Origin: Dipteris shenzhenensis
Lineage: Eukaryota
Reading direction: 5' to 3' (one strand)
DNA: 64,000 nucleotides
NCBI GenBank assembly: GCA_047967505.1
Contig: CM106538.1
The translations under genes were made by a program, and so were the position numbers. Shown in pieces: positions 1-44,611 of this stretch. The notes beneath the pieces were generated by a model, which was not told the origin of the DNA, did not search any database, and was given only the letters and a program-made list of their open reading frames with translations. Every line of letters begins with the position of its first letter. Position 1 is the first letter of the stretch.

Positions 1-3000
1 GTGGCCAAACCAAGCAGGTAAAGCCGGTTGAGGGACCAGTAAAAACAAGTACCACCGTTGGGGTGAAAAGGAAAATAACTCCAATCGCAGCTCGGGCTTG
101 GTCAAAGTCCTCGTTGACCCCTGAACAAAAAGAGAAAGCTAGAAAAGAAGAATTGTGCTTCGGCTGCCTTCAGCGACATCAGTGGAAGGATTGTCCACTG
201 AATAAAGACCGTCGCACGGCTAATATGATAATATCTGAATGCGACGTCGAAATGCAGGAGAGTCCCAATGCGGAACATATGCAGATGCAATTGGCGGGAG
301 GTTAGTACCTGTGTTGTTAAGTGTGTCTGTTACTAAGTTAGTAAGCGGTGCACCTGATAACATCCTATCTAAGCCCGTAGCAACGGGGTATACAGCCTTT
401 AATGATATGGAGTTAATTAAAATGAAAGGGCAAGTGGCCAATCATGATGTCATTGTGTTGTTTGACTCGGCGTCAACTCACAATGTGATTAACTCCAAGC
501 TCGTGAAGAGGCTGAAATTAAGACAAGTCCATCTGACTATGCGTATACAATCAGGATGGCAGATGGAAGTTCAACTGAAGTATGGGACCAAAGGGTTACC
601 CAGTTGGAGCTTCGGATTCAGGACTATGCTGAGAAGCTTGATTTTGAAATGACCAAGCTTGCTCATGCAGATATAGCCCTAGTTATGGCGTGGCATTCTA
701 GGAAGAATCCAGCCATTGATTGGAAAAAGCACGTATATCAATTCCGGATGAATGATGTGCTTTATGTCTTGCGAGGTGAGAAAGATATACCTCAGGGACC
801 GTTGGTTTCCGTGATGGAAATCCGAAAAGCTCAAGTAGAGTTTTTATTCCTTTGCACAGCATCGGTAGAGCCGGTTGATGATTCTTCGGCTAGCACTGAT
901 GTTACGCAAAGTGATGAGATGGCCAAGCTGGCTAATCTTATAACAGAGGAGTTCTCTGAATGTTTTAGAGATGAACTACCTTATGAGTTACCTCCAGAGC
1001 GGAAAGTTCAACATAAGATTAAATTGATCCCGGGGGCAGAACCTGTAAATAGGCCGCCCTATAGAATAAGTAGGTGCGCAGACAACTGGAAGAATATCTC
1101 AAGTTGGGGCAGATTCAACCAAGTTTCTCACCTTTTGCTTTGCCAGTGATATTAAAGAAGAAAAAGCATGATACGTTTCGCCTCTGTATAGATTACAGAG
1201 CATTGAATAATATCACTGTTAAGCACAGGTATCCGATGGCTCGGATTGATGGTTTGCTAGATGCATTACATGGAGCCGTGATTTTCAATAAGATTGATCT
1301 TAAGTGTGGCTACCATCAAATCCGGATTAGAGCCGAGGATGTGCATAAAACCGCTTTCAGAAGCAGGTTTGGTCATTATGAGTTTTTCGTAATACCCTTC
1401 GGACTTACCAATGCTCCAGCGACCTTCGTCATGCTTATGAATGATTTACTACATCCGTATATCGGAAAGTTCGTAGTACATTTTATTGACGATATCCTGA
1501 TATTCAGTAAGAGTATTACTGAGCATCGTGAACACTTAAGAGTAGTGTTCAGTACTTTGAGGAAAGCCAGTCTTGATGTAAATAAAAAGAAAACTATACT
1601 GTGTATGGTTAGGCTTGAATATTTAGGATTCATAATTACTCCACAGGGGGTAGAAATGGATCCGAAGAAAGTGGCTGCGATACTAACTTGGTCAATCCCT
1701 CAGAGTCTGACCGTGTTGCGATCATTCTTGGGATTTGTCCACTTTTATAGAAGGCATATCAAAGGATATTCCGAAATAGTATCGCCATTGACTGATCTGA
1801 CCTCAGATAAAGTACCTTTTATTTGGGGGTAGAATCAACAAGAAAGTTTTAACACCATAAAACAAGCTGTGGTCTTAGGACCGGTGTTAAAAATAGTTGA
1901 TCCCCAGAAACCGTTGTTCCTGAAAACCGATGCAAGTGGCATTGCGGTGGGAGCAGTCCTCCTTCAAGAGGGAAGGCCAGTAGCCTTTGAAAGCAAGAAG
2001 CTTTCTCCCTCTCAAAGGAATTGGCCAACTCATGAATTGGAGTTGTATGCTGTTATCCATGCTTTGAAAACATGGAGGCATTACTTGTATGGTTCAGAGT
2101 TTTATGTGGATGTGGATCATGATACTCTGAAACATTTTTGTAAACAGCCTGACTTGAGGGGCCGCCAAGCTAGGTGGGCAGAGCTCATGCAGGAGTTTAA
2201 TTTAACGATTCGGTACCAAAGAGGAAAAGATAATAAGGTTGCTGATGCGTTGTCTCGCATTACGCACAACCTGAGTTTCACGGTATTAGAGAGTGCTTTA
2301 ATGACCGAGATCAGAGAAACTCAAAAGGTGGACGAGTTTGTCCAGAGCTTATGGCCTAAAGCTCATGTGTTAAAACCCGGGGAAAATGAAAAGGATGACC
2401 TAGCATCCAGAAAAGGCCAAACTTATGCAAGATATACCATAAGGGATGGTATGCTAGAAAGAAATGGCAAGGTTGTAGTACCTAGTCAGAATGATCTCAG
2501 GCAGAGAGTCATTCGACAGTGCCATGATAGCCCGTGTGCGGGACATCCAGGAGTCGAGAAGACATATGATCTCGTGAAGCGAGATTTCTTTTGGCCAAAG
2601 ATGAAAAAGCATATTCATGAATATGTGACACGGTGTTTCTCGTGTCAGGTAAGTAAGGCCGAGCGGGTGAAACCACCCGAACTTTTACAGCCCTTGAAAA
2701 TACCACTGAGTAAGTGGGAAAGCATTTCCATGGACTTTATTGTAGGGCTGCCTACGACACAAGGAGGGTATGATTCTATCCTTGTGGTGGTTGATCGTCT
2801 AACCAAGATGGCTCACTTCATTCCGACCAAGGAGTCTGTTAGTGCCCCGCAAGTGGCGGATTTGTTCATTAGACATATATTTCGTCTGCATGGATTGCCT
2901 AGATCCATAGTGTCAGACAAAGATGTCAGATTTACCGGTCATTTTTGGACAGCGGTATTTGAGACACTAAGGACTGAGTTGGGAATGAGTAGTGGGGATC

Positions 3001-3779
3001 ATCCTGAGACGGATGGTCAGACGGAGAGAGTCAACCAGACTTTAGAGGATATGCTGAGAGCATATGTGTCATTGAGGCAACATATGTGGGACAAGTGATT
3101 GCCATTGTTAGAGTTTGCCTACAATGATAGAAAACATTCATCTACCGGGTTCAGTCCGTTTGAGCTGAACTATGGTTATAGACCAGCCAATCCAACTATA
3201 GTTGGAATACCTCAGAAAGTGCCTAGTGCCGTGAACTTTGTAGTTCAGATGCGGGAGATGCTAGCACTTGCGAGAGCTAATATCCGCCAGGCTATGGATA
3301 GAGCCAAGGTGTATGCGGATGAAAACCGGTCTATAAGAGTATTTAAGGAAGGAGAAAAAGTTTTTCTCAGAGTTCCTTCGCACTCGAAGTCGTTGACTTC
3401 AGGAGAGTGTGCTAAGTTATCACCTCGATACTGTGGGCCGTGGTTAATTCTGAAACGAATAGGCAAGGTAGCCTATAAATTAGAGTTGCCACCGGGGTGT
3501 AAGGTGCACCCAGTGTTTCATGTTTCTCATTTAAAGAAATTTTTGCATATTGGTGACTCACTAATCGAAGGTGTGGTTTTGTTTCAGGAGATAGAGGATA
3601 ATGCAAGACGCAAACCAATAAGAATCCTGGACTGAGAAACAATGCAAATACGGAATCCGAAGATACCCACGGTGTTGGTTGCATGGCATGGTCAGCCTCT
3701 ATCGGAAGCTACCTGGGAATCCGTATACCAGTTACGGAGAGTGTTCCCAGATTTCATCATCGAGGACGCTGATGCTTGA
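1..3779 (+). mobile_element. Ty3/gypsy LTR retrotransposon (chromovirus-type) internal region, degenerate gag-pol
   Basis: CCHC knuckle CFGCLQRHQWKDC (63-305); protease LFDSASTHN; RT with RLCIDYRALN, PFGLTNAPATF, FIDDILIFS (1074-1832); RNase H TDASGIAVGAVL; integrase HHCC plus SMDFIVGLP and ETDGQTERVNQ (1869-3098); C-terminal chromodomain-like PIRILD*...VLVAWHGQPLSEATWE. Order PR-RT-RH-IN with several stops and frameshifts. Confidence 0.96.
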
Positions 3780-4486: not shown

Positions 4487-4662
4487 TGAAAGGGAAGGTC
4501 AGAGGGAGAAGAGCAACAGAGAGAGAGTGAGAGTAAGAGACTCAAAATGCGGGTGTGAAGTGATGAGCCACACCACAAACTCATAGGTTTTATTAGGATT
4601 AGGTTTTTTCCCCCTATGACATATTTTTAATAAAGGGGTGGCAATGTGCCTTTACCCCAACA
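4487..4662 (-). repeat. 3' LTR (176 bp) of the intact copia; PPT AGGTGGGAGGT adjacent at 4663-4673
   Basis: Direct repeat of 10543-10747 with TG/CA termini. Confidence 0.95.
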
Positions 4663-10542: not shown

Positions 10543-10747
10543 TGAAATGGAAGGTCTGAGGGAGAAGAGCAGAGAGAGAGTGAGAGAGTGAGAGTAAGAG
10601 ACTCAAAATGCGGGTGTGAAGTGATGAGCCACACCACAAACTCATAGGTTTTATTAGGATTAGGTTTTTTCCCCCTATGACTGTCTTAAGACAGTCATAG
10701 GTGTCATATTTTTAATAAAGGGGTGGCAATGTGCCTTTACCCCAACA
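10543..10747 (-). repeat. 5' LTR (205 bp) of the intact copia
   Basis: Direct repeat of 4487-4662 with an extra 24 bp completing a palindrome. Confidence 0.95.
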
Positions 10748-14819: not shown

Positions 14820-16500
14820 ACAATAACCATCAAAGACCACTCTATAACCATTTGTAGCAATGGATGAAACAGAAATCAGATTTTGCTTGATTCTTAAAAC
14901 ACATAAAAATCTCCAATAAAGTGACTGCGTCACCTAAGACAGATGTGCCTCCATGCCTCTAACTAGATAAGAAGCATTGTTGTTGGCACATGTGACTATA
15001 CCCCCCTTAGGGGCATCATCCAAGGACAACAGTTTCTTGCAGGAGGTGATGTGCTTGGAATCAAAGTACCATTTGGACATAGAATCAGCCACAAATAAAG
15101 CTGCATCATGTTAAGAAGGATCGTAGTGGCATATAACAACAAATTCCCAGTCACAAAATGTGGTGGCCGTTTGCAGATGTAGCAATGGGATTAAGGTCGC
15201 AGGTGTCAGCCTGTTTGATTGTCTCAGGCAAAGTTTCTACAAGATAAATATGAGGAAGCACAATCTTCCCGATGATCATAACTCATGCGTCAGCATCTTT
15301 CTACATCCATTCTTTGACGTCATCTATATCTGCAACCCAGAGTACCTTTCCTAATGCATATTTGATGCTCTGGTTTCAATTTTCATCCTTTAATTATCTC
15401 CCACAATCCACGCACAACTTTGATCTTCCAGATCGGGTAGTTAGTCCCATCCACCATCCCCATCGCACCAAAGTTTGGAATTGGCATACACACGTGGGAC
15501 ACCATCTACAACTGTGAGATTTAATGCAAAGGAAATTCTCACTTGAAAACGTATTGACCTTCTTGTCACACCTCTATTGACTCAGAAGTTGCCTTCCTCT
15601 TTCAATTGTGGAAATCAATCTCTTATCGGATCCCTTCTTGACAAAGGCATACAGCTCCTGGCTTCATATCTCACCCTCTTGTCAAAAGCTAGTCTCTCAG
15701 CTCTCTTCCAATCACACCACCGTCTCACGGCTCTCCACATTCGCAGCTGGGCTCTGATACCATAATAGTAAAACCTAGACCCTTGGCTAGTTTCTTCATG
15801 CCGCAAAAATGGAAATGGATAACGTCTATGCAATGTAAGACTCTTGAAAAAAGAGAAGCGAATGCTTAATTCAAACTTTCTATGTCTAGAGGAGAGAACT
15901 CACAAGCACCAAATTCAAAAGAATAGACAACAGTAGAACAGTCCAAAATATCTGATAGTATCCTGCACAAAACTGAGCCAAACACTCCTTAAAGAAAGCT
16001 GCACCAAAGATCCCAACACATGTAGCAATCCACTGCCTTGGATGCTCTATGGTGAGCACAGGTACTGCTCCTACTTCTGTCCTTGCAACTCCTCAGGTTG
16101 CGTGCTCCTCGGTGAGCTTCAATTACCATCTATAGTATTGCTTCAAAGTGGGTGAGGGCTGCCTCCTATCTGAACTGATAACAGCCTCCACAATGAGGCC
16201 TAACTTTAGGCTCCAGACCCTCCACACTGACCAACCAGCGACCTGGTTTTGCCTACACTCGACTTGGATCAAGACTGCCAACCTGCAGTCCTTCCTGGCC
16301 CCTTATAGACCATGTAACTGCACAGCCTGCTGGCCCTTTATTGCACTCAAACAGCCCACCAATATGTCCATCTCCAGAGCCCGTGGCAGCACTGCGCAGT
16401 CCTGCACAGGAGCCCTGAATCTCTGCAACAGATCCGCGACCATTGTGGTTGCTCCAATACAGAGACACATCAGAGTCCAGAGCGTCCACTACCAGTAGTC
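14820..16500 (-). mobile_element. Internally deleted copia fragment: probable 5' LTR (~15766-16500), PBS 15749-15762, protease remnant
   Basis: TGGTATCAGAGCCC on minus strand; minus translation KWYFD..SKHITSCKK...VTCANN and IKQNLISVSSIATNGYRVVFDGY near 14830-15080. Confidence 0.7.
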
Positions 16501-16880
16501 AACGGGTATACATGGGAGTCTGCCTACAGAGATGAAACAAGAGATACAAGAGGGTTCCGAGGGTCAGGAGGAGTCGCAGTCCTTTACAGATCCACACTTT
16601 TGGGGGCCATCTCAGTAGAGCAGAGAGATGCATATTCCAGGTTTCTTTGGATATGGATTCGGCACATGGACAACCGGAATTTGTTTATTGCAGTTTGCTA
16701 CTTCCCCCCTAAGACCTCCCACTTTGCCAGAGATATTCGAGGTGAGGATGAGACATCTCCATTTGCTGCTCTTTATCAGTCCATTGTTGACTTCGGAGAA
16801 GTCCTCCTAGTTGGGGACTTTATCGCGAGGACAGGCGCTCGTCAGGCACATCATAGATCAATAGCCAAAAAGAAAACATA
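16500..16880 (+). pseudogene. LINE AP-endonuclease fragment (RTE/RTEX-like group)
   Basis: GGVAVLYR...FLWIWIR...LFIAVCYFPP...VLLVGDFIARTG endonuclease motifs. Confidence 0.75.
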
Positions 16881-17809: not shown

Positions 17810-18404
17810 CTTTTCATGAACATCAATTTCTTCGTGCATTCTTTCCATACTCGTGCATTTGCACACATACCCAAGTTTTAACAAGCAGTCTGTATTTAAA
17901 AAAAGGGAGCTTCAAGGAACTTTCGTAATTTCCTGCGCTGCTGTTTCGGTGTGACAAATGGATAAGGTTGATTACCCTCTCAAACTCCTGTGCACATAGT
18001 ATACAAGCCCCGCACCAAGTTGCATAGAAGTCAACAACAATGGGAGATTTTCTTTCAGTCAAGAGCTTGTGTAATTGAGCTCCAGTCACCTTATCCTGTT
18101 GACAGAAAAGCGAGCTAATAATGAGCGCGAATTCAAAATTGCAACCGGAGACCTCTCAAACCAAAGCGATTGCGCAGCGTCTTACCACTAAATAATGTCG
18201 GGCCACGGCTACCACCTGCCCTTTCCGTAAGCGGGTTCTCAAAGAAGGAGAACCTTTGAAAGAAATGCCGCTGAAAGGCGTAGGCGAATAATTCTTGCGC
18301 GTAGTTTGCCAGGAGGCGGCACGGGCCGGAATGCAGGAAATGGCATTGTTTTTGTTTTGAATAGAGATAGAGATAGAGATAGAGATAGAGATGGAGGCTG
18401 ACAT
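17810..18404 (-). pseudogene. TRXz: Plastid thioredoxin z (CITRX)-like gene or pseudogene: exon 1 18404-18186, exon 2 18095-17976, decayed exon 3 near 17860-17810
   Basis: Ser-rich transit-peptide-like exon 1 ending HYLV|GTAAG; CAG| acceptor then DKVTGAQLHKLLTERKSPIVVDFYATWCGACILCAQEFER|GTAAT, matching TRX z YLVKK..AQEL...PLIVDFYATWCGPCILMAQELE; EYGKNAR remnant downstream. Confidence 0.8.
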
Positions 18405-19415
18405 ATGGGCAGGACGCAGAGAGCGAACGTCAGTTCAACTTAGTTCACTTCACAAGAGAAGTAAGCTCAAGCTCTTGGATTCTGGAAGTGTTGTTCTAGA
18501 GAAAGAACAAGAGAAAAAGAAAGTAAGAAAAACTAGTTTATTTAGAGTCTCACCCTCGGCCACATGTACCATTTTTGGCGTACCCCTAGGGGTAGCCTTA
18601 GGGACGATTCAATTTCTGCAAAGCAGAATTGAATATTTGTTGTAATTGTTTAAAGTTCCATTGGCATTCTCACTATTCTCCTCCAGAATTCACTCTATAC
18701 AGCTGCAATATCTAACATGCAACATTAGGATGGAGCAAGACAACCAGTGCAAGGCGTGCGAAGGTAACTGAAGGGGGGAGAAGCACTGGAGGGGGGTGAG
18801 ACGGGCTTCCTTTGCAACCTGTGTATGATCTCGTCGTAATATTTAATGACTACTCTGTGATTATCATGAATTGCAAAGTGCAACGTCACAAGGATTCCGA
18901 GGGACCTTGCCTTCTTATGCCTCTGGTCTTAATAATTAATTGCTCTATAGTGATTATTATGGAATATATACACTGATTTCATCTATCTAGACTTCTACGC
19001 GTGGATTTGATCATTGATTGCGGCATATTCGACTTTGGCAGCTAATTCTCTACGTCTACCTCTTTTCATTACGATTGATTTCCGTCGTGATTAGTGTGTA
19101 GTAATGGTGGTGATTAAATAGGTTATTATCACCTCAACGACTTGCGGCTCTGTGCATCCTTCATGGAATATTTCTACAATATCTTCTGACGAATAACGTT
19201 TGTCGTCGTCTATGTTGCTGGACCTTACCTTTGCTCTATAAATTAGAGAGGCTAAGTCTAGTGTCTCTCAATTTGCATACAATCTCAGATAATGCGAATG
19301 GCAGGAGTAGAAGGTTCAACTGATTTCATGGAGACAGACAACGGGGCGTTTGCCAAGGGTGCTCAATGAATTCTACTTTCTCTTATTCGATCGTCCTTCC
19401 TTCTTTTTATTCTTT

Positions 19416-20132
19416 TTCTTTATTTCTTACAAAGTTTTACGTATTGTGCAGGACTTGCTAAGGTATGTCCTAAGATTCTGGAGTCACCTATTACTCCGTC
19501 TTCTTATTATTCTTCTTCTTTATTTCTTACAAAGTTTTACATATTGTGCAGGACTTGCTAAGGTATGTCCTAAGATTCTGGAGTCACCTATTACACCGTC
19601 TTCTGCAAAGGTTTTTGCTCGAAGCGACACCGATTTTGGAAAAGTCAACACTCTTAACAACGGTATTACCAATCGTTTGTAATTGTCTATCATTTTGTTA
19701 GTTCTATTGTTGATTTGTATTTTCGCTTCAACGAAATCGATTACCGTGAGTTTGCCTGTGTAGGTGATAGCTTAATCACATTTGCATCTAGCCTTACACC
19801 CAACTCTAGCCTTGCAACCGATGCTTCTCTCTGGTTGTTGCAATTTCGTAGTGGCGTTCCCTTTTTCCTTGTCTATGTTCCGCTCGAAGGGACGTCGATT
19901 TTGGAAAAGTCAACACTCTTAACGACGGTATTACCAATCGTTTGTAATTGTCTATCATTTTGTTAGTTTTATTGTTGATTTGTATTTTTGCTTCAATGGA
20001 ATCGATTACCGTGAGTTTGCCTGTGCAGGTGATAACTTAATCACATTTGCCTATGGCCTTATACCCAACTCTAGCCTTGCAGTCGATGCTTCTCTCTGGT
20101 TGCTACAATTCTGTAGTGGCATTTCCTTTTTC
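19416..20132 (+). repeat. Two local duplications: ~89 bp (19416-19504, 19516-19604) and ~237 bp (19631-19867, 19896-20132)
   Basis: Near-identical direct copies read from the sequence; periods 100 and 265 bp. Confidence 0.9.
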
Positions 20133-21618
20133 TTTATTTATGCTGCATACCTGTAAAGGCCTTCGCTATGCGAGAAATTTCATTGTGGCCTCCTACCCGC
20201 ACTCCTGTACTCTCCTCCCGTGCCTCTTTTTGTCTTCTGCAAGCCTTCGTGCTTCTCTCTACCTGCAGCGATTGCATAAGTCTTCTCTGCTTCTTTGTGT
20301 ATGCTGCCATCCCTTAGAGGCCTTTGCCTGGGCGTGTAATTTGGTTATGGCCTTGCATCCAATTTCATTCGTGGCTTGCCTGCTTCTCGCTTCCTCTGAA
20401 CTCCCGTATTTGCCTCCCGTGTGTCTTTGTCCTCCTGCAAGCTTTTAATGGCCTTTCTCTTTGTCTTCTGCAAGCTTTTCTTGGCACTACGCGACTTCAG
20501 TGTGTACTTCACCTTACCTACAGTCTATCTGCTGCTACAAGACCACTATTAAGCAGACTTTGTTAGTTGGGGAAGCCATCAGATGTTGCCTCGTCAGAAC
20601 CTCTCTGTTTTGTCTGTGCTCGAACCACTTGTTACTAGTTGCCTTGTGATAGACATGCTCTCAAAAGTGCAAAGAAACGAACCTACTTTGCTAAGAATCT
20701 GTTGGTCCTCAATTCATATATTGAGTAGCATCGACAAAGACTTTCATTAGCAGTATTCACAATAATTTCATACAATGTAATTGTGTTATTGCTTTTCAAT
20801 TCCAAATTATCTTTTTGAAAGTAGATTTTGCAAGGTTGGAGAAATTATTTTTCATGTTTTTTGGCTTAGGTCGTCTGGTATCTTTCGAATGCTCTTACAT
20901 GGATAAGAGTGCGTCTCCACCTACTCCAAAGTCAACGCCTTCATTTAATGCTTGTCCAAGCAAGCCCCCTAAGGAAATTTTGCTCAAGCATTCACCCATC
21001 AAGAAGAGTCCACGATGATCTCTCAAGCATTCATTTAAGGAAGTTCCTGAGGAAGCATATGCTCAAGGTAAACATTATGTTTGTTTTTGGTGCTTAACAT
21101 TTGAATTTAAATTGTTTTTTAATTAGTTTTTGTTTTCTTTTTTAACAGTGATACAACTAGTATGAGACTACCCGGAGTATGTTAGTTTTAGATCCACAAT
21201 CACCACTCATGTCCAACGGAAATCTAAAGTAAAATATGAGAGGCAATTGGAGGAGAAGGCACTTGAGCCTAAAATAAATCATAGCGATGTTATAAACATC
21301 GACTTTGATTGAGTCACGTTTGATTAATTTACTCATTTATTTTGCAAGTGTTGTTATATGTTTGGTCATAAAATTATGTTATATTATATACATGTTTTAT
21401 TTTCTATGGTATTGTGAACTTCTTTTTTGCTTTATATTGGCAATTGCAATTGTATTCTTATAATGAAAATTTACCAAAACAAGTAACAAAGTAGATATTT
21501 TTCGTTCATTGCGTTGTTATTTGGTTTCATTTTAAAAAAATAGCATTGAAGTGAAGTATTGTATCATAATTCTAAAATTTTCTTCAAAAACTCATTTTAT
21601 GCATACTTGTATTTTTAG

Positions 21619-22910
21619 CTAGCAAACAACTCATATGCAAAGAAGACAACGATGAAGTAAATTCTTACAAGCCATGTAATGAGACTACCAACTTCGTCCC
21701 CTCACCTCACAATCCTTCACTTACAAAAGCAATCATTCCGTCAAAAGAAAATTTCGTGGGTGGAGACAATTCCTTGATTTCTTTAAGCATCACTCAATTA
21801 TCTGATTGTGCTCCCCTTAGATTTGTTTTCGAAGAAAAGCTTTTATGCAAGTATGGGACCTACAAAGTCATTAATCCAAAGTATCCCACTTATTTGAAAG
21901 GAGATCTTACTGACAAATATTATAGCCACACAGTGACATTACTCATGCCAAATGCCTACATCCACCGATTTGTAAATATCTTGCAAGTTGGAGAATTTGT
22001 AGAATAGAGGGGGCAAGTGTTGTTCCCAGAGGAATAATTGAAGGTGGCACTTCTAAGTTCTCCTTGCTACTAGATGCTACTACATGCATCATTAGAGGTG
22101 ATCCTTTTCATGGCAAATATGTCCCATGGGCTTCTGATATGATCAACTTCAACAAGTATACTGTCTCAAATGTTATGGGCACAATTGCTATTGCTATAAT
22201 TAAAGTTGCAAGCGAGGAAGGCATGGGTTATCAAATTATCGTAGCACATAGACCTCGAGACGAGGATAGAGCTATGGTGAGTTAGACAAACAACTCATTT
22301 CACTTGCTTATTTGTTTATGATGTCAACATTGTCTTACTTTACTTTCTTTTACCTTGTGCATGTATATTGCAGTTATCCTTTGTAAATGAGAGGAAACCA
22401 ACTCTTACTCAACTCATCCAATAATTCAATGAAGAAGGTGTGGTTATGTATGCTCTCAAAAATGTGTCCTTCTTGAAGGCAAAAGGCACCATTTGTGTTT
22501 TTAACTTTACTATTCTAGAGCTCAAGTCCAACAAAGATGACTTGAAAGCAGCTTTCGTCAGCCAAGTTTCTCATTTAGGATACAAAACAAAGGTGAATAA
22601 CTTGGTCTTACCAACACAAACAATACACTCAAACTCAAAGCTCACAAGTTTGTGCTTTTGCAGGTGTTTGGCATTCTACACTTTACAAATGTGAACGCTG
22701 ACTTGATCGAGCACGTTTGTGGGGCTTGTGGAGGAGTGCGAGTTAGCAAAGATCCGCTTCGACCATTTTGCTATTCGTGCCAAGGCCCTTAAAACATTGA
22801 ACAAGTTCCTTCCCTCGTAGGCGACATCATATGACATGGAGGAAAGTAAGTTCTTGTTCACATAAGAGGGCAATATGTGGACATTGTCTAGTGGGAGCTT
22901 TACCATTAAT
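21619..22910 (+). pseudogene. Spliced RPA70-like (OB-fold plus C4 zinc ribbon) gene associated with the rolling-circle element; possible upstream exons from ATG 19298
   Basis: GT-AG introns 22277-22373 and 22593-22663 join frames; last exon encodes CGAC-X13-CYSC; beta-strand-like repeats (RFVNILQVGEFV, MYALKNVSF); in-frame stops present. Confidence 0.55.
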
Positions 22911-23379
22911 AGCTCTGGATTTGTAATTGCATTTGAACCAAATGCTTGACGTACTTTGCTTTCTATTGAAATATTACTTCCACTTTGCTATCTTTCTTAC
23001 AAATTTCCCTTGTATTTATCTACACTTACACTTGTAGTGAATTTAAAGGTCCTATATATTGAAGTCATTTTAAACATCTCAAAATGAATGTGACAAAATT
23101 GCTACAAGACAAACACTTTGCAATGAATCCAACATTCAATCTTTCTAATCCATTTAATACAAACATTCTCATGTGTGTCTTACATTTCCTCCCTAATTTT
23201 ACATATGAACAACTTCTTCAAACAATGTTTGAAAACATAATGTCGAAGAAGGAAACATCAAAATCTCTATGGATCATGTTTGCTTCAATCCAAAAAGATA
23301 TTAGATTGACAAATAAAAGCATAAAAAATGTATTACTCAATTCAGCATCAGCACGTGCATTGGTAGTGGACATTCTTCA

Positions 23380-26300
23380 ACGTTTTCACACAATGTTTGA
23401 GACTTCCTTTACAATATTCATCTACAATGGAGTAAAGCTCTCTAAAAAAATTAACTGAGAATTGTCCTGCGAAGGACAATATGGACTTCATGGAAGCATT
23501 GTCAACATTTTTGCTGATGTCGATAGAGCAGCACAACTCTTGCCAAGGTTCTTGAATCATCATGATACAGTTGCACTAGCTATAAAACGCAAGCTATCTT
23601 TTAAACATAATTATGTAAGTGGAATCATACAACCAACTTATACAATGGTTGCACTAAAAGAACTGTTGTCAAGTCCCTTGTACCAAGAAAACAACATTCG
23701 TATCAATGAGCTTTGGGAGAAACATGTTCAAACCGTACAAGCAAAATAGATATTAGAAGAAAAGAATGATGAGGCAGTTGAAGAAATACAAGAAGAAGAC
23801 TTTGTAACTGATACACTTGTGCCTGGAATATACACAAGTCAACAAGTTGTCGACTTCGAAGGTCAAACTATTGAAGTTGCATGCTTTGAAGGTTTTTCTC
23901 TACTAAGTATGTTCAAGGACAAATTTTGTGAAGAACTATCATTTCCTAAGCTTTTCTTTGGAAACCCTCGACAATACAACATTCCAAAACACATCTCCTA
24001 CCAAGATATTGCAAAATGGGAGTTAACCAATGTAGATCGCCGATTTGCACTATCCAGAGAGGACTTATTCTTCAAGACAATGAAAAGTTCTTTCTTCTTC
24101 TTTGGTTCATATGCGAAAAGTACAAATAAAAGGAATAGTAGCTAAGGATGCTTTGCTAGACACAAACATTGAAAAATTGCTTCATTCCAACATAGGCTAT
24201 TGCGACTTTAGTCAACTAAGAACTTTAGCTGATTATAAGCACTACCTCAAGAAAAATATTTTTGCAATGCTAGGAACACCAACCTTTTTTTTAACCTTGT
24301 CGGTAGCTGAAAAACTATGGGAACCATTGGTAGAAGCAATTTACAAACTCAACCGAAGGACTTCTGAAGAAAAGCATGCAAACCCACAAATGGAGACAAG
24401 TCATCTCCCACGTGCTGATCCAATCACAACAACACAATATTATGTTCATAAATTCCAAGCTCTGAAAACTATTATGAAAAAAGATGAAAAAAACCTTGGT
24501 AAAATAACAGATTTTTTTTCCATATAACTGAATTCCAAAATAGATGCAGCCAGCACGATCACGGTCTTCTATGGATTGAAAATGCTCCTATCTTTGGAAT
24601 ATCTCCAAATTGTGAAATTGAAGACTTTGCGGACAAATACATTTCAACAGACATCCTGCAACTCAATACATAACACATGCAAGTGCAAACAGATAAACAT
24701 CGAAAGACCTACTACAAACGTTTAAAAAAATACAGATTTGGTTACCCACGTGCCCCCATGTCTTCTACAAAGGTATTAGAACCTTTCACCATTCCTCCAA
24801 ATAACAACGTTGTAAAGAAACACATTAAATTGATTAGCGAGACTTTATCTATAGAAAACATGCACCTATTAAAGTACGATGAATTTTGGAATGCTATAAA
24901 ACTAACAGAAGACCAATACATATTAGCACTTCGAGGATCTATTTCACAACCAACTCTCTTCTTGAAAAGAGAACCTAAAGACATTTATACCAACAACTTC
25001 AATCCTCATCTATCGAACTTATGGGGAGCAAACACACATGTACAATTCAAACTAAATCCCCACAGGGCTACTACTTACTATACATCTTACATGACCATAA
25101 TTGACAAAGAGACAACTATAGTTGTCAAAGAAGCACTCTCACAAACCATAAATACTGGCCCCCCACCTAATGAAAGGATTAGGAAAGTGGGAAACACAAT
25201 CTTAAATACTCAGCACATAAGTCCACAATAAGTAGTATATTTAGCTCTATCATTGCCACTATTTACCTCAACAAGGCAATTTCAATATATTAACACAAAC
25301 CCTCCAAATAAACGCACATTACTACTAAAGCGATGCAAACAATTGCAAAAAATGAATCCTCAAAGTACAAAAATTTACTTTGACAACATCATTACAAAGT
25401 ACTTGAAACAAAATATAGGACTTCAACACATCTGCTTAGCAACTTTTGTTAGCACATACACAAACAATGGAAAAGCAACAAAAGAAAGAAAGAAACAAAA
25501 AATCATCTATTTCAACAACTACAATGAAATAAAGGACCCTGAGAACTACTATAGAGAGCAATGTCTTTTATTTCTTCCATTTCACAAAGTTGAACCAAGC
25601 CTTGATAACTACACTTTGACATGGCATGATAAATACAACAACAACAAAGACATTATTGACCCAAACAGAGATAAATTCAACAAGCTAATTCTCAAAATAG
25701 TGGAAAATTCAACAAGTAATTACACAATCACAAGCACCTCAAATATTAGCACAAACAATAACATTGACAACTATGACATTGCAATAGACATGCCCAATCA
25801 ACCCAAAGCAAAGCAACTTCCTAATTACACTTTCAAAAAATATACAATGGCACCTAATAATGATTACTACATTAACTTTAGAATCTTAAACACAAACCAA
25901 TTTTTAATTGTAGAGGATATAATGCCAAGAAAAAGGATTTTCCCATCACAAGCATTTCACCTCTTCTTGACAGGAAATGCAGGAACAGGAAAAACATTCA
26001 CACTTCTAACAATAGTACAAGCACTACTATGAAACTACTTGCACAAACAAACACATAACATTGACTCACCAAAGGTACTTCTCCTAGCATATACAGCAAC
26101 ATTGGTGGACCCACAATACACTCTGCACTACACCTGCCTCTAATGGCATCACACTACACAAGTCTTTCTAGTGAAAGATTACAAGAACTTTCACTGCTCT
26201 ACAAAGACCTTCAACTAGTTGTGTTTGATGAAGTGTCTTTGATAAGCTAGTCCCACTAAGGATTCATGGCTATTTATCAACCAATTATCACAATCAAATA

Positions 26301-27720
26301 TACAAACTTCTTTTTGGAAAGACAATGTCTTGCATTATGAATTAACAAAACCAATGTGCCAATAAAATTCCCAATACCTTGAGATACTGAATATAGTATG
26401 AATAGGGGAACATACGACAAGCGACATATCATACATTAACGAAAAATATCATAGGCAACCACCTCAAAAAGAAAGTATACCACACTTATTCTACACTAAT
26501 GCCTCCAAAGATGCTCATAATGAATAACTATTCCACTTACTCAAAGAAAGTCCTCATATTCTTAAAGCAATAGACAAACCACAAGACATGTAGCAAAACA
26601 ATAACAATACCTTCGAATCCAATAAACACAGGAGGACTACACCAAAAACTTCAACTAAAGCCAGGTATGATAGTGGAAATATGTTCAGGAAATCTCGACA
26701 TCCTTGATGGTTTAGTAAACGATGCAAACGGTATTTTCAAAACTTCAAACATAACACATGAACAAAAAGTTTTCTGGATCTTATTCATCACAAGAGAATT
26801 CTAGATTGGCAAGAACAACCTAAATTCAATTACATGTACATAATTTCCAATCCAACCTGCAACAGCTAGGATGATACACCGTTCTCAAGGACTAACAATG
26901 GATCAACTTGCATTTGACCCATCAAACATAAAATCACATGGATTAACATACACAGCACTATCACGTATAAGAAACCCCAAAAATCTTTACATCATCAAGC
27001 CATTGCAACACAAACACATCAAAGTTGAAAACAACGGCTTAAAAGAAATGGAGAGACTCAAAATAGAAAAACAATGGCATACCCTTCAAACAAACTTTTC
27101 TATGAAAGACTGACAAATCATGACATTGCAATTGCTAAATACACATGCCTTACTCTCACATCACATAAACTTAATCAACAAAAAAAGCTTGTTAAGCACT
27201 ACAATCCTCTGCCTCCAAGAATTACATAACAAAACAACAACAACAATAACCTTGCCATGGAGTAGGAATTGCAACATGTTACAAAAACAACCTTGAACTC
27301 ATTCAAGACAATTATATTCAAGAACAAGGATGTGAATGCTATCTTACAATCTTCAAAATAGAACCATAAAAAGAAATTGCAGTCATAAACGTATACAATT
27401 CCCCATTAACAAAAAAAGAAACACCACTTAAGTCTCTACAAATAACTCTACAAAAAATAAACAATGGCAATAAACAATGTCATTACAACAATAATCATAG
27501 GAGATTTCAACATCAACCTCAGTTTTTCAAACAAGAATAACAAACAACTATTCCATTTCATTAAACAACATAATTACACTCGATTAATTGATCAACCAAA
27601 TACTATTCCTGGATCACATATGGACAAACAATTACAATACAAACAATATATTTGGAACAAACTTCATGTATTGGTCTGACCACTCCTTGATATACACTAC
27701 CATAGATTACTAACAATGAA
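23380..27720 (+). mobile_element. Helentron/HLE2-type Rep-helicase-endonuclease coding region, degenerate
   Basis: GQYGLHGSIVN...LPR...IKRKL; PTFFLTLSVAE (Rep motif 1); TEFQNRCSQHDHGLLWIENAP (HUH); WGANTHVQF..YYTSYM (motif 3); PIF1 FLTGNAGTGKTF, VFDEVSLI, IHRSQGLTMD, YTALSRI; then endonuclease ILCLQE, INVYNSP, IIGDFNINL, WSDH. Confidence 0.9.
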
Positions 27721-28289
27721 AAAAAGTTCTCCTCGCGCCAGGCCTTATGAATGTAATTTAGTTGTTTGCAAGGTTCAGGCATGTAATGCGGCCGGATGGT
27801 TAGATGCCTGATGGAAGGCAAGTCGGTGCCACACGGGCACCTAAGGTCCAACAAGAGCTGTGTATAGCCCAATAAAAAACACATCTCAAACTTCAGCCTA
27901 ACATGTGCCCCTGAAACTCTGATAAGGTTTGACACCTTTAGGCAACCATGTGCCCCTGATTCCAATAACATCAAAGCTTACCGGATTTCAACCTCTATCA
28001 TGCATGTGCCCAAGCTATATGCTACTAAAGACCCATGGGTTTATGAGAGAAAGAGGATAGCACACCCCCAAAGGTGCCCATGTACACCTCAACTTTTGGG
28101 GTGCCCAGAAAGAGTCCTAGACACTCTCGAATAAAGTCTCGGAATCATTACATCATCGTACAAGGTGAATGTCACTCACTCAGCCTACCCTCAGTATTTT
28201 ATCTTTTAATGTATGACAGAGATAGTTGTGTAAATAAGGGAATGGTCAGTCGAGTAAACAAAGCTGGTCCCGCAAAGATCACTTTCTGA

Positions 28290-29480
28290 ATTGTTTGTTC
28301 AGACGTGGTCTAGCGTTGATCCATGTAATATGGTGGGTGATCAAATTAGTTGCTTCATGTCTTTTGTGACCATGAATTGTTGCAGTGTTTGTTTTTGGAA
28401 GTCAATGTTAAAGTCACCTAAGATGTATATTTATCAATTTCTTGTAAACGTCAAAGGCCAGAGTTAATATGGAAGGTTGTTGAAGTGTTTCAAAGACATG
28501 TTTTGCATTTTGTGCATGTCTTTACTCATCTTCATCATCATGGAGGGGTAGCAGAATTCTTATTTCCCTCATTGATGGTTTCAAGAAACCAAACCTACAC
28601 CATCTCTTCTTCTTTAGGCATGTTCTTCTAGGTCTATGGGTTTGTATGTCCTTCTTCGGTATGTTCAACAATGTAATGTCTATTGTCTATGGGTTTGTAT
28701 GTCCTCTAGTATATTCAACAACGTAATGTCTATTGTTATGTATTGGTCAATAAACTTAATAATTTCATCCATTGTACATTTGTCAACTGTGGGTGCATCT
28801 TTTATCCATAGTAAGCCATGGTCATGTTGACTTCCTCTGTTTTGGAATTCAGTGAGACGAAGAAATAGTCTTTAATGTCTCCAATAATTGATGCATCTTT
28901 ATGTATGAGACGCTTTAATGCTTGGAACCTGTGCACATAGTATTGCGCCATTGTCATTGGGTCTGAGCAAATTAAATCTTAGAGCTGTGAAGGGTTTATT
29001 GGTACTTGAATTGGATTACTGGGATTTTGCAAGTCTTGTAAGCATTGAAGAGTGACTCCCATAGTCATCATGTTGTCGAGAGTGTTATGAAGAATATGGG
29101 TACACCTAGTTGACGTAGCATTGTGAATAAGTTATTCTTTAGTTTGTTTTTATAGTCCATCGACATCCTAAGGCATGTGTAGTCTTTCTACCCGTCGCTT
29201 GATTGTAGTAGCTTTTCAATGTTTGTGTCAACTACATTGCCCTCCTTTGCACACAATGTATGGCGTCTAAGTTGCCCTTTACTCATTCAGACCCATGTTG
29301 ATGAAAGTACTCCTCGAACTATAATTTTCATTCTCTTAAAGAAAAGGTTTCTCCATTGATAGTGCAAATCTTCTCTCTTTGTTTGTCAATTCCCATTGTG
29401 CTATGCTTTGGTATGATGTGCAAGATGGGATTGCATACTCTCTAGCATGTCCATTAAAAATACTTGGAAATGCCAACTCC
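28290..29480 (-). mobile_element. Second, diverged Helentron Rep fragment in inverted orientation
   Basis: Minus strand SYQSIAQWELTNKERRFA, LFTMLRQLGVPIFFITLS and TEFQNRGSQHDHGLLWIKDAP, homologous to 23990-24600. Confidence 0.88.
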
Positions 29481-30387
29481 TCACAATGTAGCTCCCTGGA
29501 GCTCGTCAGTTGCCTCCCTCAGCTTGCTGCAGCCCATCAGATGCTTAGCTTCCCAAGGCCTACACTTGCATCCAATGGTCGATATAATTGTTGATGGTAG
29601 CACAACAATGAAGTGGATGTACATACCATCAACAATCAAATTTTGACCAAAGCTATCCCCTTCTTACTTGATGACTCGTTTACTGTGGGAAACCTTATAC
29701 AAATTCTTATGGTAACAAGTGTGGGAAAGTCTGCACTTACACAAACAATTTATTCATGGAAAGATGGAGAGCAGCAAAAGCAACGAAATAAATTACACTA
29801 TGTACAGACTTGTTTACCTGATTGAACTTGACTGCCACACAGTCACTGATAGCAAGCTAGGTGCTAGAGTTTGCACTCGTGGACACAACAAATCATGCAC
29901 CTGAACACACATAAGGAGCACGATCAAATCACAAAATGCCACGAAATGTACTTACCATTCAAAATGAAACTGTCATCAAGGGTATCTCCTTCAACCTTGA
30001 TTCTAGTTTTCAAAATGTGTAGATCCTATGCGGCATCGCACATATCTTCTATGTAGTAACCTGAGTTCTCTATCTCCTCCCTAATTTTGATGGAACATAC
30101 TTCAACTGCGAAGCCAAAAACATAAGCTCTAGTTTTGAAGCCTTAAGCATATCTTATAGCAAAATATTACATGCACCTACAAAAGTATCGTGAACTGCAT
30201 CGGCAAATCGATTTGATGCAGCTGATAAGCTACAAAACTATTGGGTCACTCACGACCCATCCATGCAATATGTGTTGCGTGCGTGCCACGTGTCATGGCA
30301 TGCATGCCAACACTTAGTTGGCAATCACAAATATAAGCTTAGTTAGCTATCACATGCACTACACTGTTCCATTAGCATCTTGCACAT

Positions 30388-41620: not shown

Positions 41621-44611
41621 AGACTCCTAACCTACATCGATCACATACCACTCATATAGGACCGTGCTGCCTTGATTAGTCACACACTCCACGAGGCTGC
41701 CTTCCAAATCTCTTCCCACACCACACAGTCCACTAGCCCACCACCTCTTGGTTTTGTACCCTGCAACAACTGGTACGATGCAGAATGCAAGGCTTACCGC
41801 TGACAAGTCCGACTTGAAACCAGATGTCACCTCCCGAACAGGACACAGTACGCAAGTACCGATGTCTCGTACGTCGAAAGAAGTAGGCATTTCTTCGTCG
41901 AAATGAGGAGCTGTTGAACATCTTGTACAGCAACAACTCTAAGGATTTTTGGAGGAGATTCCTTGAGCGTAGGTCTCCATCACCCCTCACCAACACGAGA
42001 GTTTGGCACACGTATGCACACCATCTTTATGATGTCCCACATTAGCCTACTTCAGATCTCATATGCACACCTCGCCCCACCACTTGCACGTTGTTCACCA
42101 GAGGGGGAGTCAAGGACGCGACATTGAAACTGCACAATGGCCGAGCTAAGGATCACGAGGGGCTATGCACTGAGTTTATCGCATATGGGATCGACACATT
42201 AGCCCCGATCCTAGCAAAGCTATTCAATGACGCTGTTTGCCTTGGCTTCCCCCGCACTTGGATACTCAACACCATCAACCCCATCCACAAGGCACGGGAT
42301 CCCATGGACCCGAGTAACTACAGGACTATCATGATTGGACATGTGATGTCCAAGATCTATGTAGCTGTATTGGATGCGTCGGTCAGCCTGTTTGCAGAGA
42401 TGAGAGGGCTTAGAGTAGAGGGTCAGGCCGGCTTCAAGCGAGAACATGGGACTATGGATCACATACTCACACTCAGGAGTGTCATTGAGGAGGCTAGATC
42501 ACGAAAGGAGAGGGTATACTGCTACTTTATGGATTCCCACAAAACCTTTGACACAGTACCTTGAGCTCGTCTCATCACACGCCTATAGACACTGGGATTT
42601 GATCAGGAGATCATCTGGGCAGTCATGGCACTTTATGAGAGTCTCAGGCCAAGTTCAGACATGCGCAGGTTGGACAGATGAGATCTTGAGTACCATAGGG
42701 GTCAAATAGGGTTGTCCCTTATCACCAACCCTATTTGGCCTCTACATTGATGAGCTTGAGACTTTCATGGGGACTTTCGGAGGGACCGGTTGCTCACTTG
42801 CTAGGATCACCATCAGGATTCTTCTTTATGCAGATGATGTGGCAGTCTTGTCGTCCACACCCGAGGGGCTCTACGACACTTAGATGCACTCACTTAGATG
42901 CACTGCAGGCTTTTTGTTTATCCCATGATTTGGAGGTCAACCTTGACAAGACCAAGGTCATCATCTTTAACACCTCTCGAGCAAACATGCAATGGAAGCA
43001 TTTCACTTTCGGTGGGTCACCAGTTGAGATTGTATCCTCATACACTTACTTGGGGGTCATCTTCTCCGGCCCGATCTTCATGATGAGACCAACGATGCAG
43101 GCTAGATTGAGTAGGGGATACACCTCACTGGTTCGGCTAGAGAGACAGTGCTTCCACTCTCACTTCCAGGACCCTCGGACAAAGGCTCTTCTCTTTGACT
43201 CCTTGGTCCGACCAGCTGGTATGTATGGCAGCCGTTGTTGGGGACCTGACATGTCAGAGATAGTGTGGAGCACCTGCAGATCCTCATGCTCTCACGGATG
43301 ATGCGGGGGAAACCATCTATACCACATCGCATCATTTAGGCCGAGTTTGGTGCTTCTCCACTTCAGCTAGATGCAACCTTTCAAACCATCACATATCTAC
43401 ACCGGGTTAGATCATATGGGGACTGCACATCAGGGAGACAGAGGTTGCCATGGTTAGCTCTCGATTCCTCCATGAGATTGGCAGCAGAGGGAGATGAGCG
43501 ATGGTGGTATGCACGGACTCACAGATGGTTTGTGAGACTAGGGTTTCACATCGATAGGATACCTCCTTTTCAGTACAGTTTAGATGCCCCTCCGGTACTC
43601 CCACCCACCATCTCGATCGGCAATCAGGTCATTCGAGAGGATCTCTTGTAGCTACACACCTGTAGCACATGGTTGGAGTCGAGGGAGCTTCCAGTGAAGC
43701 TGAGTTTCTATAGAGATTACTGTCTTTGTATTTCAGAGGAGGGATTCATCACACCACCGGGTTACACTGAGCTTCATATGCCTCACTCACTACGGATCTC
43801 CATCGGACAGTGTCGGGTATCATCACACCGCCTCCACATAGAGAGCAACAGAGCAGAGGGGATCCCTATGGAGCATCGCATATGCATATTGTGCGACTAT
43901 CAAGAGGTTGAGTCAGAGGAGCATTTTATTTTCAGGTGCCTAGTGTACTACGAGATCCAAGGTCGCTACCACTGTCACTTCCAAACTCCTTTTGAGATCC
44001 CTCGCCTACCCAGATTAGAGATGCCTCGCGACCTTCATTCACGAGGGGGTCCGACACAGAGAGTACTTACTCAGGCGACGGGACTTGGCCACACCATCAA
44101 ACACCTCTTAGAGTAGGATCACAGAGTTCTTCTGATCGAGTGACATTGATCGTCTAGTCTCTAGCCGCAGACGTGACAGAGACCCCGACCCGATGATCGT
44201 AGCACGACACACGAGACATTGAGGGGACATAGATCATTCTGGGAGACCTCCCGTGATTGTTTAAACCTCGAATACGTCCCACGGGAGTCACAGTGGCTCT
44301 GGTTTTGCGTTGAGCCTCGTCCAGGAGACCGATATGCACGGCACCCCTTGACGGGCGCCAACGTCCCATCACTAGCTATTCACCAGCCAGGGCGACATGA
44401 CATACAAAGGATTCCACTCCGCTCCAGTCTTTTTTCTTTTCATTGTCACAACTAGATGTATTTGATTATGTATGATCAAACTTAGGTTTCAACACGAGTG
44501 ATGATGCTCGTTGTAGTAGCTCCACCCTTGCTGTGATTTGTATCAGGTTTTCTTTCAGTCTCATACACCCATCAGTCTTCCAAAGACTCTAATAAAATTT
44601 CTTTCTTTCTT
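41620..44611 (+). mobile_element. 5'-truncated RTE/RTEX-like LINE (subfamily A), degenerate RT, (TTTC)n tail
   Basis: WFCTL/WYDAECK linker, NYRTIMIGH, QAGFK..HGTMDHILTLR, KTFDTVP, GCPLSPTLFGLYID, LYADDV, VNLDKTKVIIF, SSHRLHIE...RICILC...ESEEHFIFRC; ends AATAAAATTTCTTTCTTTCTT. Confidence 0.93.

Follow-up and report, generated by a model that had tools for sequence, protein, structure and literature searches.

Can a rolling-circle transposon that brings its own endonuclease be recognized in the genome of a land plant, and is the endonuclease a part of the element or a chance neighbor? The question is raised by a stretch of 64,000 nt of contig CM106538.1 (Dipteris shenzhenensis, GenBank assembly GCA_047967505.1), which was analyzed as a whole and is called the window here, and in which a preliminary description had placed a Helentron at positions 23380-27720. 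Helentrons are Helitron-like rolling-circle DNA transposons of the HLE2 group. Their transposase combines an HUH Rep that uses two catalytic tyrosines with a 5'-3' helicase of the PIF1 type and, at the C-terminus, an endonuclease of the apurinic/apyrimidinic (AP) or long interspersed nuclear element (LINE) type. The canonical plant Helitrons (HLE1) are described as reading EFQKRGLPH in Rep motif 2. Animal Helentrons of fish, insects and mites were reportedly treated by Poulter and colleagues in 2003. We conclude, with a probability of about 0.9, that the window holds two old and inactive Helentron copies of the HLE2 group, copy 1 and copy 2, whose Rep, PIF1 helicase and AP/LINE-type endonuclease form one polypeptide, and that the sequence points to a non-flowering land plant as the most likely host.

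The Gene of Copy 1 and Its Decay

To describe copy 1, we read positions 24503-26029 through the stops, with X at each stop, and used this translation as the query in a search for longer proteins, which yielded 17 proteins from 5068 candidates. The four best relatives (P0001-P0004; 1571-2174 aa) show 36-43% identity at 99% query coverage, and each of them is one chain in which Pfam recognizes DUF6570, Helitron_like_N, PIF1 and either Exo_endo_phos or Exo_endo_phos_2. In a tblastn search, residues 339-1834 of P0001 and residues 332-1830 of P0002 align colinearly with window positions 23459-27695, and the chained pieces reach an E value of 0.0. This chain of full-length relatives is the decisive evidence for the identification and lies far beyond chance. 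Homology is detectable from position 23459, not 23380, and extends to the stop codon at 27710-27712.

Motifs were located on stop-to-stop open reading frames (ORFs) of the + strand between 23459 and 27712. HUH Rep, PIF1 and AP-endonuclease motifs had been described beforehand as colinear on one strand, and all the motifs named then are indeed present, in order, on the + strand (Table 1). In an alignment of 15 full-length relatives, the HUH His pair and the Tyr pair of copy 1 fall on the invariant H704/H706 and Y875/Y879 (P0002 numbering). Copy 1 retains the catalytic residues that were checked, namely the His pair, the Tyr pair, Walker A and Walker B, and the N, E, D-x-N, D and H of the endonuclease; the Lys that follows the tyrosines (K882 of P0002), invariant in the relatives, is Ile in copy 1.

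It is also evident that the gene is broken. The chain is interrupted by 11 in-frame stops and shifts frame 8 times, and the alignment to P0002 reveals that a stretch of ~30 residues is missing from the helicase. With its ORF interrupted, and with the N-terminal ~330 residues and both termini not found, copy 1 is dead and not autonomous. The sense strand is strongly A-rich and G-poor, with 40% A and 13% G in copy 1 and 37% A and 18% G in copy 2 (28200-29550, - strand), against 30% A and 21% G in the window. Strand-biased G-to-A hypermutation was considered as the cause of the decay and set aside, the bias being only modest: among 646 sites with agreement between P0001 and P0002, copy 1 shows 144 differences that can be traced to a single base change, of which 30 are G>A and 12 are C>T. 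Because copy 2 is A-rich as well, the composition is probably a trait of the family.

Table 1. Positions of the two Helentron copies, their domains and motifs, and the neighboring elements in the window
Feature	Copy	Position	Strand	Basis or remark
Decayed Helentron RepHel-endonuclease gene	1	23459-27712	+	colinear tblastn chain to P0001 and P0002
Homology to the DUF6570 region of relatives	1	23459-23711	+	aligns with P0001 residues 339-423, within the P0001 Pfam DUF6570 match (319-423)
HUH Rep domain, Helitron_like_N	1	24084-25100	+	Pfam PF14214, E 1.5e-6; His and Tyr columns invariant in 15 relatives
Rep motif 2, EFQNRCSQHDH	1	24530-24562	+
Two-tyrosine motif, TYYTSYMT	1	25073-25096	+
PIF1-type helicase	1	25886-27000	+	Pfam PIF1 fragments; alignment to P0002; relatives' profile vs solved PIF1 helicases, E ~1e-70
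Walker A, GNAGTGKT	1	25973-25996	+
Walker B, FDEVSL	1	26224-26241	+
Late helicase motif, HRSQGLT	1	26877-26897	+
Late helicase motif, YTALSR	1	26949-26966	+
AP-type (LINE-like) endonuclease, spread across three frames	1	27120-27709	+	alignment to the P0002 endonuclease domain; motifs; Exo_endo_phos_2, E 0.006
Endonuclease motif, ILCLQE	1	27204-27221	+
Endonuclease motif, VYNSP	1	27391-27405	+
Endonuclease motif, IIGDFN	1	27494-27511	+
Endonuclease motif, LDHIW	1	27609-27623	+
Endonuclease motif, WSDH	1	27672-27683	+
Endonuclease C-terminal end, STDHSLIY	2	28230-28421	-	tblastn, P0001 residues 1765-1834 and P0002 residues 1758-1830; tblastx to copy 1, 27630-27722
Rep part, EFQNRGSQHDH at 28818-28850	2	28459-29533	-	tblastn, P0001 residues 492-819 and P0004 residues 796-1064; tblastx to copy 1
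Gypsy element		1-3635
Ty1/copia polyprotein, uninterrupted, 1392 aa		4764-8939	-
LINE-type endonuclease fragment		16318-16878	+	unrelated to the Helentron endonuclease
LINE family, first copy		42046-44113	+	near-identical peptide stretches shared with the second copy
LINE family, second copy		57046-58936	-	orientation opposite to the first copy

Copy 2 and the Relationships of the Two Copies

Copy 2 converges with copy 1 tail to tail, with ~490 bp between the two stop codons. Within 38 bp (28459 to 28421), its alignment jumps from residue 819 to residue 1765 of P0001, and copy 2 is therefore an internal-deletion derivative without ~945 residues. Between the copies, identity is 66-73% in DNA, over the sole stretches that can be aligned, and 46% in protein (141 of the 306 comparable positions); copy 2 is a related lineage distinct from that of copy 1. 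The stretch between them (27712-28230) is more GC-rich than the copies and contains repeated ATGTGCCC/GGGCACC words as well as hairpins at 27775-27811 (z -2.0) and 28063-28103 (z -2.3), and Tandem Repeats Finder detected zero tandem arrays in it. It may consist of terminal regions, of a small inserted element or of host DNA.

The placement of the copies was examined in two FastTree phylogenies with local Shimodaira-Hasegawa-like support, both drawn with midpoint rooting and both composed without any HLE1 sequence. In the tree of the query region (73 rows), copy 1 groups with P0001 and P0002 (support 95) inside a clade of six rows (support 100) that also includes P0003, P0004 and P0005. In the tree of the Rep region (137 rows), copy 1 and copy 2 are sisters (support 90) and are joined by P0001 and P0002 (support 96), all of them within a clade of nine rows (support 99) in which P0270, P0269, P0004, P0003 and P0005 are the other members. 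The sole member of this clade with a species name is P0005, an "uncharacterized protein LOC131860407" of the conifer Cryptomeria japonica. P0005 is a Helentron RepHel protein, probably from a transposon copy that was truncated and then taken up into a gene model.

Motif 2 was surveyed in 211 relatives, all of them retrieved by their likeness to the window element, and is visible in 156. Ser is found in 148 of these 156 and Pro is the next residue in 132. The preliminary description had noticed that Gln stands in place of the usual Pro in both copies, and this holds for EFQNRCSQHDH in copy 1 and EFQNRGSQHDH in copy 2. Among the 156 proteins, the residue next to Ser is Gln in P0001 and P0002 only, and Glu in P0004, P0269, P0270 and P0005. 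Because Gln and Glu are thus confined to the nearest kin of the window copies, the change from Pro to Gln is the signature of a small clade and not a mutation acquired during decay. A further reading, which we hold tentatively and at somewhat less than even odds, is that there is a plant-resident clade of endonuclease-bearing Helentrons with a motif-2 signature of its own (RGS-Gln/Glu-His-Asp/Glu-His, as against RGS-Pro-His), and that it has long diversified in non-flowering plants. The long diversification is suggested because two sister lineages, only 46% identical, adjoin in the window.

The opposite history would be that an animal Helentron entered this genome recently by horizontal transfer. 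Such a transfer is not without context, given that the hosts of HLE2 subgroup b are mixed (fishes, Mollusca and Cnidaria as well as land plants) and that horizontal transfer is invoked in the HELIANO study (PMC11417382). It is nevertheless quite improbable here: the window copies are each other's nearest kin and yet have diverged to the extent given above in both protein and DNA, both are heavily decayed, and the named animal relatives (from Culex, Malaya, Danio and Oculina) are more distant than P0001-P0004, the named animal Helentrons being merely 24-28% identical to copy 1.

The Endonuclease as a Part of the Element

Whether the endonuclease belongs to the same gene can be judged first at the junction itself, where a single reading frame (26574-27293) contains both the C-terminal end of the helicase (…YTALSRIRNPKNLYI…) and, ~40 residues further on, the first part of the endonuclease (…MTLQLLNTHALL…ILCLQE). 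The endonuclease of copy 1 aligns with the Exo_endo_phos domain of P0001-P0003. An exhaustive search of representative proteins counted 2700 relatives with E ≤ 0.001, of which 256 reached E ≤ 1e-30, and the best 150 were pooled with the first 17 into a set of 166 relatives, to which a locally built endonuclease profile was applied. The profile is positive in 77 of the 166, and the domain is present in 75 of the 81 relatives that extend far enough past Rep motif 2 to hold it. The six long-enough relatives without it are P0005, P0013, P0016, P0017, P0122 and P0163. Over 1274 aligned positions, P0005 shares 54% identity with P0004, its sister that has the endonuclease, and the final ~250 residues of P0005 cannot be aligned; because the likeness to P0004 fades before the last helicase motifs, the lack of the endonuclease in P0005 is attributed to a truncated or chimeric gene model. 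When the endonuclease region of P0004 was used as the query, all 46 matches carried Rep and/or PIF1 families and none of the 46 listed a reverse transcriptase. Finally, copy 2, divergent as it is, keeps the same C-terminal end of the endonuclease.

Taken from the sequences, the shared frame, the 75 of 81 relatives, the 46 of 46 Rep- or helicase-bearing matches and the C-terminal end of copy 2 argue that the endonuclease belongs to the element, and that Rep-PIF1-APE (APE, AP endonuclease) is a single fused gene and not a chimera. The earlier identification of a Helentron with a C-terminal AP endonuclease is borne out on the same grounds. The domain is of the LINE type as judged by profile comparison, since the profile of the relatives finds LINE endonuclease entries (2v0s, E 1e-15; 2v0r, E 2e-14; the LINE-1 endonuclease 1vyb, E 3e-14) as its best solved matches. 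The idea that a canonical Helitron (HLE1) merely received an unrelated LINE endonuclease fragment at its 3' end, with colinearity by accident, could appeal to this LINE character and to the LINE copies in the window with their own endonuclease fragment (Table 1), but it is already contradicted by the fusion evidence just given and by the lack of any reverse-transcriptase remnant downstream of 27712, and retains next to no probability.

Surrounding Elements

The window is a mosaic of transposons, with a gypsy element, copia elements (intact and in fragments) and two LINE copies. The uninterrupted copia polyprotein is flanked by a direct repeat of 115 nt (4506-4620 and 10567-10681), with 96% identity between its two units and 6061 bp from one to the other. 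These units probably belong to the copia long terminal repeats, which suggests a young, possibly active element. The best named matches of this polyprotein are TNT1-type proteins of flowering plants (43-52% identity), other matches reach up to 61%, and some fungal ones are at 31-32%. A host gene, or a fragment of one, is hinted at in the window only by an ORF on the - strand (17826-18155), 41 residues of which match part of thioredoxin (Pfam E 2.6e-7). A search of the window against Rfam returned 0 matches.

Upstream of copy 1, two candidates were tried and rejected. The idea that the gene runs on upstream, past an intron or insertion of 2.1 kb (21308-21352), found no support and was given up. 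A run of ORFs on the + strand (21576-22800), whose pattern may resemble that of RPA-like plant proteins with an OB fold and, at the C-terminus, a Cys-x-x-Cys pair, was considered as an RPA-like gene of the element; this too is unsupported, as the run gave no relevant Pfam family at E up to 10 and no usable Atlas match.

Weighing the Identification

Several observations weigh against the reading of the locus as two Helentron copies of the HLE2 group in a non-flowering land plant. One is the weakness of the Pfam matches on the window fragments. Of 15 ORF fragments run separately, 5 gave matches, and the sole match at cut-off is Helitron_like_N (E 1.5e-6), by a margin of 0.1 bit (29.0 bits vs a cut-off of 28.9). 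Two pieces of PIF1 (E 4e-4 and 5e-3) and Exo_endo_phos_2 (E 0.006) are under the cut-off, Herpes_Helicase was matched at E 8e-4, and the three copy 2 ORFs gave zero matches. Thus, the hidden Markov model search that the preliminary description had proposed matched Helitron_like_N, PIF1 and Exo_endo_phos_2, but only the first of them at cut-off, and Pfam alone makes a thin case.

The second observation is that the ~330 residues with which P0001 and P0002 begin, a Cys-x-x-Cys pair among them, were not found upstream of copy 1. When the first 340-670 residues of P0001, P0002 and P0004 were searched by tblastn against positions 19000-23600, only scattered weak matches appeared, the best of which (E 0.003) is an unrelated low-complexity stretch. 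A profile made from the N-terminal regions of 112 relatives found nothing better than E 1 among all 3204 ORFs of the window. Either copy 1 has been truncated on its 5' side near 23450, or its decay there has gone too far.

The third observation concerns the ends of the element. Inverted-repeat scans, hairpin folds and an alignment of the 3' flanks, all within the 64-kb window, established no termini, no subterminal inverted repeats and no TT target. The best candidate is a 13-nt inverted pair at 21619-21631 (preceded by TTTTTAG) and 27760-27772, for which ~0.3 pairs are expected by chance on a rough estimate. The pair is followed by the hairpin at 27775-27811, and 6 of 200 shuffles fold as well as this hairpin does. 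The arrangement of pair and hairpin fits the published Helentron layout but is not above chance. The 3' flanks of copies 1 and 2 show no alignment, an equally high score being reached by 32 of 300 shuffles, and no further copies or empty sites occur within the window. The subterminal repeats, 3' hairpin and TT sites to which the preliminary description had pointed as a check therefore gave nothing above chance in the two copies of the window.

The assignment to HLE2 is also indirect. It draws on the nearest relatives, all of which have HLE2 features, on DUF6570 homology and on the absence of a Rep match to Helraiser, the solved HLE1 transposase, and it comes with trees that hold no HLE1. DUF6570 is found in the nearest relatives, and their DUF6570 region aligns with window positions 23459-23711; Pfam DUF6570 was not called on the window ORFs, and the first part of the domain was also not found. 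The Rep half of the window element did not match Helraiser, even at E up to 10; P0002 does match it, through the helicase only. As for the host, the neighboring copia, gypsy and LINE elements are plant-type, but the best named matches of the copia polyprotein are only 43-52% identical. This distance from angiosperm elements hints at a plant without flowers. A Rep fragment searched against the Atlas matched eukaryotic clusters. An origin of the Helentron-bearing window outside the land plants, such as an alga, a fungus, an animal or a contaminant contig, could appeal to the animal names among the more distant relatives and to the fungal copia matches. It is improbable in view of the TNT1-type matches, of the Cryptomeria japonica protein in the clade of nine rows, and of the abundant HLE2 in conifers, lycophytes and mosses (PMC11417382). 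The probability of about 0.9 stated at the outset takes these points into account.

Discussion

The window element shares with animal Helentrons one ORF with HUH Rep, PIF1 and a C-terminal AP-type endonuclease, the Ser in motif 2, and the emergence of internal-deletion derivatives such as copy 2 (Thomas et al. 2014, PMC4067079). It differs from them in being only 24-28% identical to the named animal proteins, in reading RGSQHDH in motif 2 instead of RGSPHxH or RGSAHAH, and in that no OTU protease domain was seen here. For animal Helentrons, inverted repeats in subterminal position are also described, as are a 3' stem-loop and ends at T runs (PMC4067079); none of these is established for the window copies. 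With HLE1, as represented by Helraiser (PDB 7lcc), the element has in common the HUH Rep, the PIF1 helicase and the rolling-circle mode, and Helraiser is found at E 1e-50 with the helicase portion of the profile built from the relatives; in contrast, HLE1 has no endonuclease, and the similarity does not extend to the Rep half, as noted above.

By analogy with Helitrons and Helraiser, the Rep would nick one strand at the end of the element and become linked to that strand via a tyrosine, the helicase would peel the strand off, and the single strand would circularize and insert at a T-rich target. Thomas et al. (2014, PMC4067079), who set out the structural hallmarks of Helentrons, hypothesize that the endonuclease nicks a T run, and the endonuclease of the window element may likewise make the target nick or the initiating nick.

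It had been suggested in earlier work that land plants are without HLE2, as recounted in the HELIANO study (Li et al. 2024, PMC11417382), which reports HLE2 in 13 land-plant species from 6 of the 8 sampled classes. The counts include 111,638 in Sequoiadendron giganteum, 3,367 in Taxus chinensis, 555 in Sphagnum magellanicum and 223 in Diphasiastrum complanatum, and several mosses have HLE2 too. In the same source, the land-plant elements belong to HLE2 subgroups a and b, subgroup b is enriched in Exo_endo_phos, DUF6570 is given as an HLE2-specific marker, and a supplement legend includes Helitron-5_SMo among earlier "Helitron2" sequences. Judged by features alone, the window element resembles subgroup b (PMC11417382), with which it shares Exo_endo_phos, a land-plant host and, in its relatives, DUF6570. 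HelenSM92 from Sphagnum magellanicum (PMC11417382) is likewise a land-plant HLE2; its terminal inverted repeats are short and it inserts at TT sites, but it carries a GIY-YIG domain and not the AP-type endonuclease of the window element. An explicit land-plant element with an AP-type endonuclease was not found in the literature searched, although the per-species domain tables might hold one.

Because HLE2 in land plants was reported in 2024, an endonuclease-bearing Helentron in a plant is not a new kind of element. The preliminary description had spoken of a poorly described plant Helentron/HLE2 lineage; "poorly described" is fair, and "undescribed" would not be, in view of the HELIANO report (PMC11417382). 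What the window adds is a readable endonuclease-bearing example in a plant, together with an adjoining deletion derivative and a clade signature in the Rep motif. This is useful for transposon annotation and opens no new question. The source names of the relatives show that copies of this kind can be mis-annotated as genes for a PIF1 helicase or for "exonuclease III". If the motif-2 signature does mark a long plant-resident clade, endonuclease-assisted rolling-circle transposition would be old in plants, and not only in animals and oomycete relatives.

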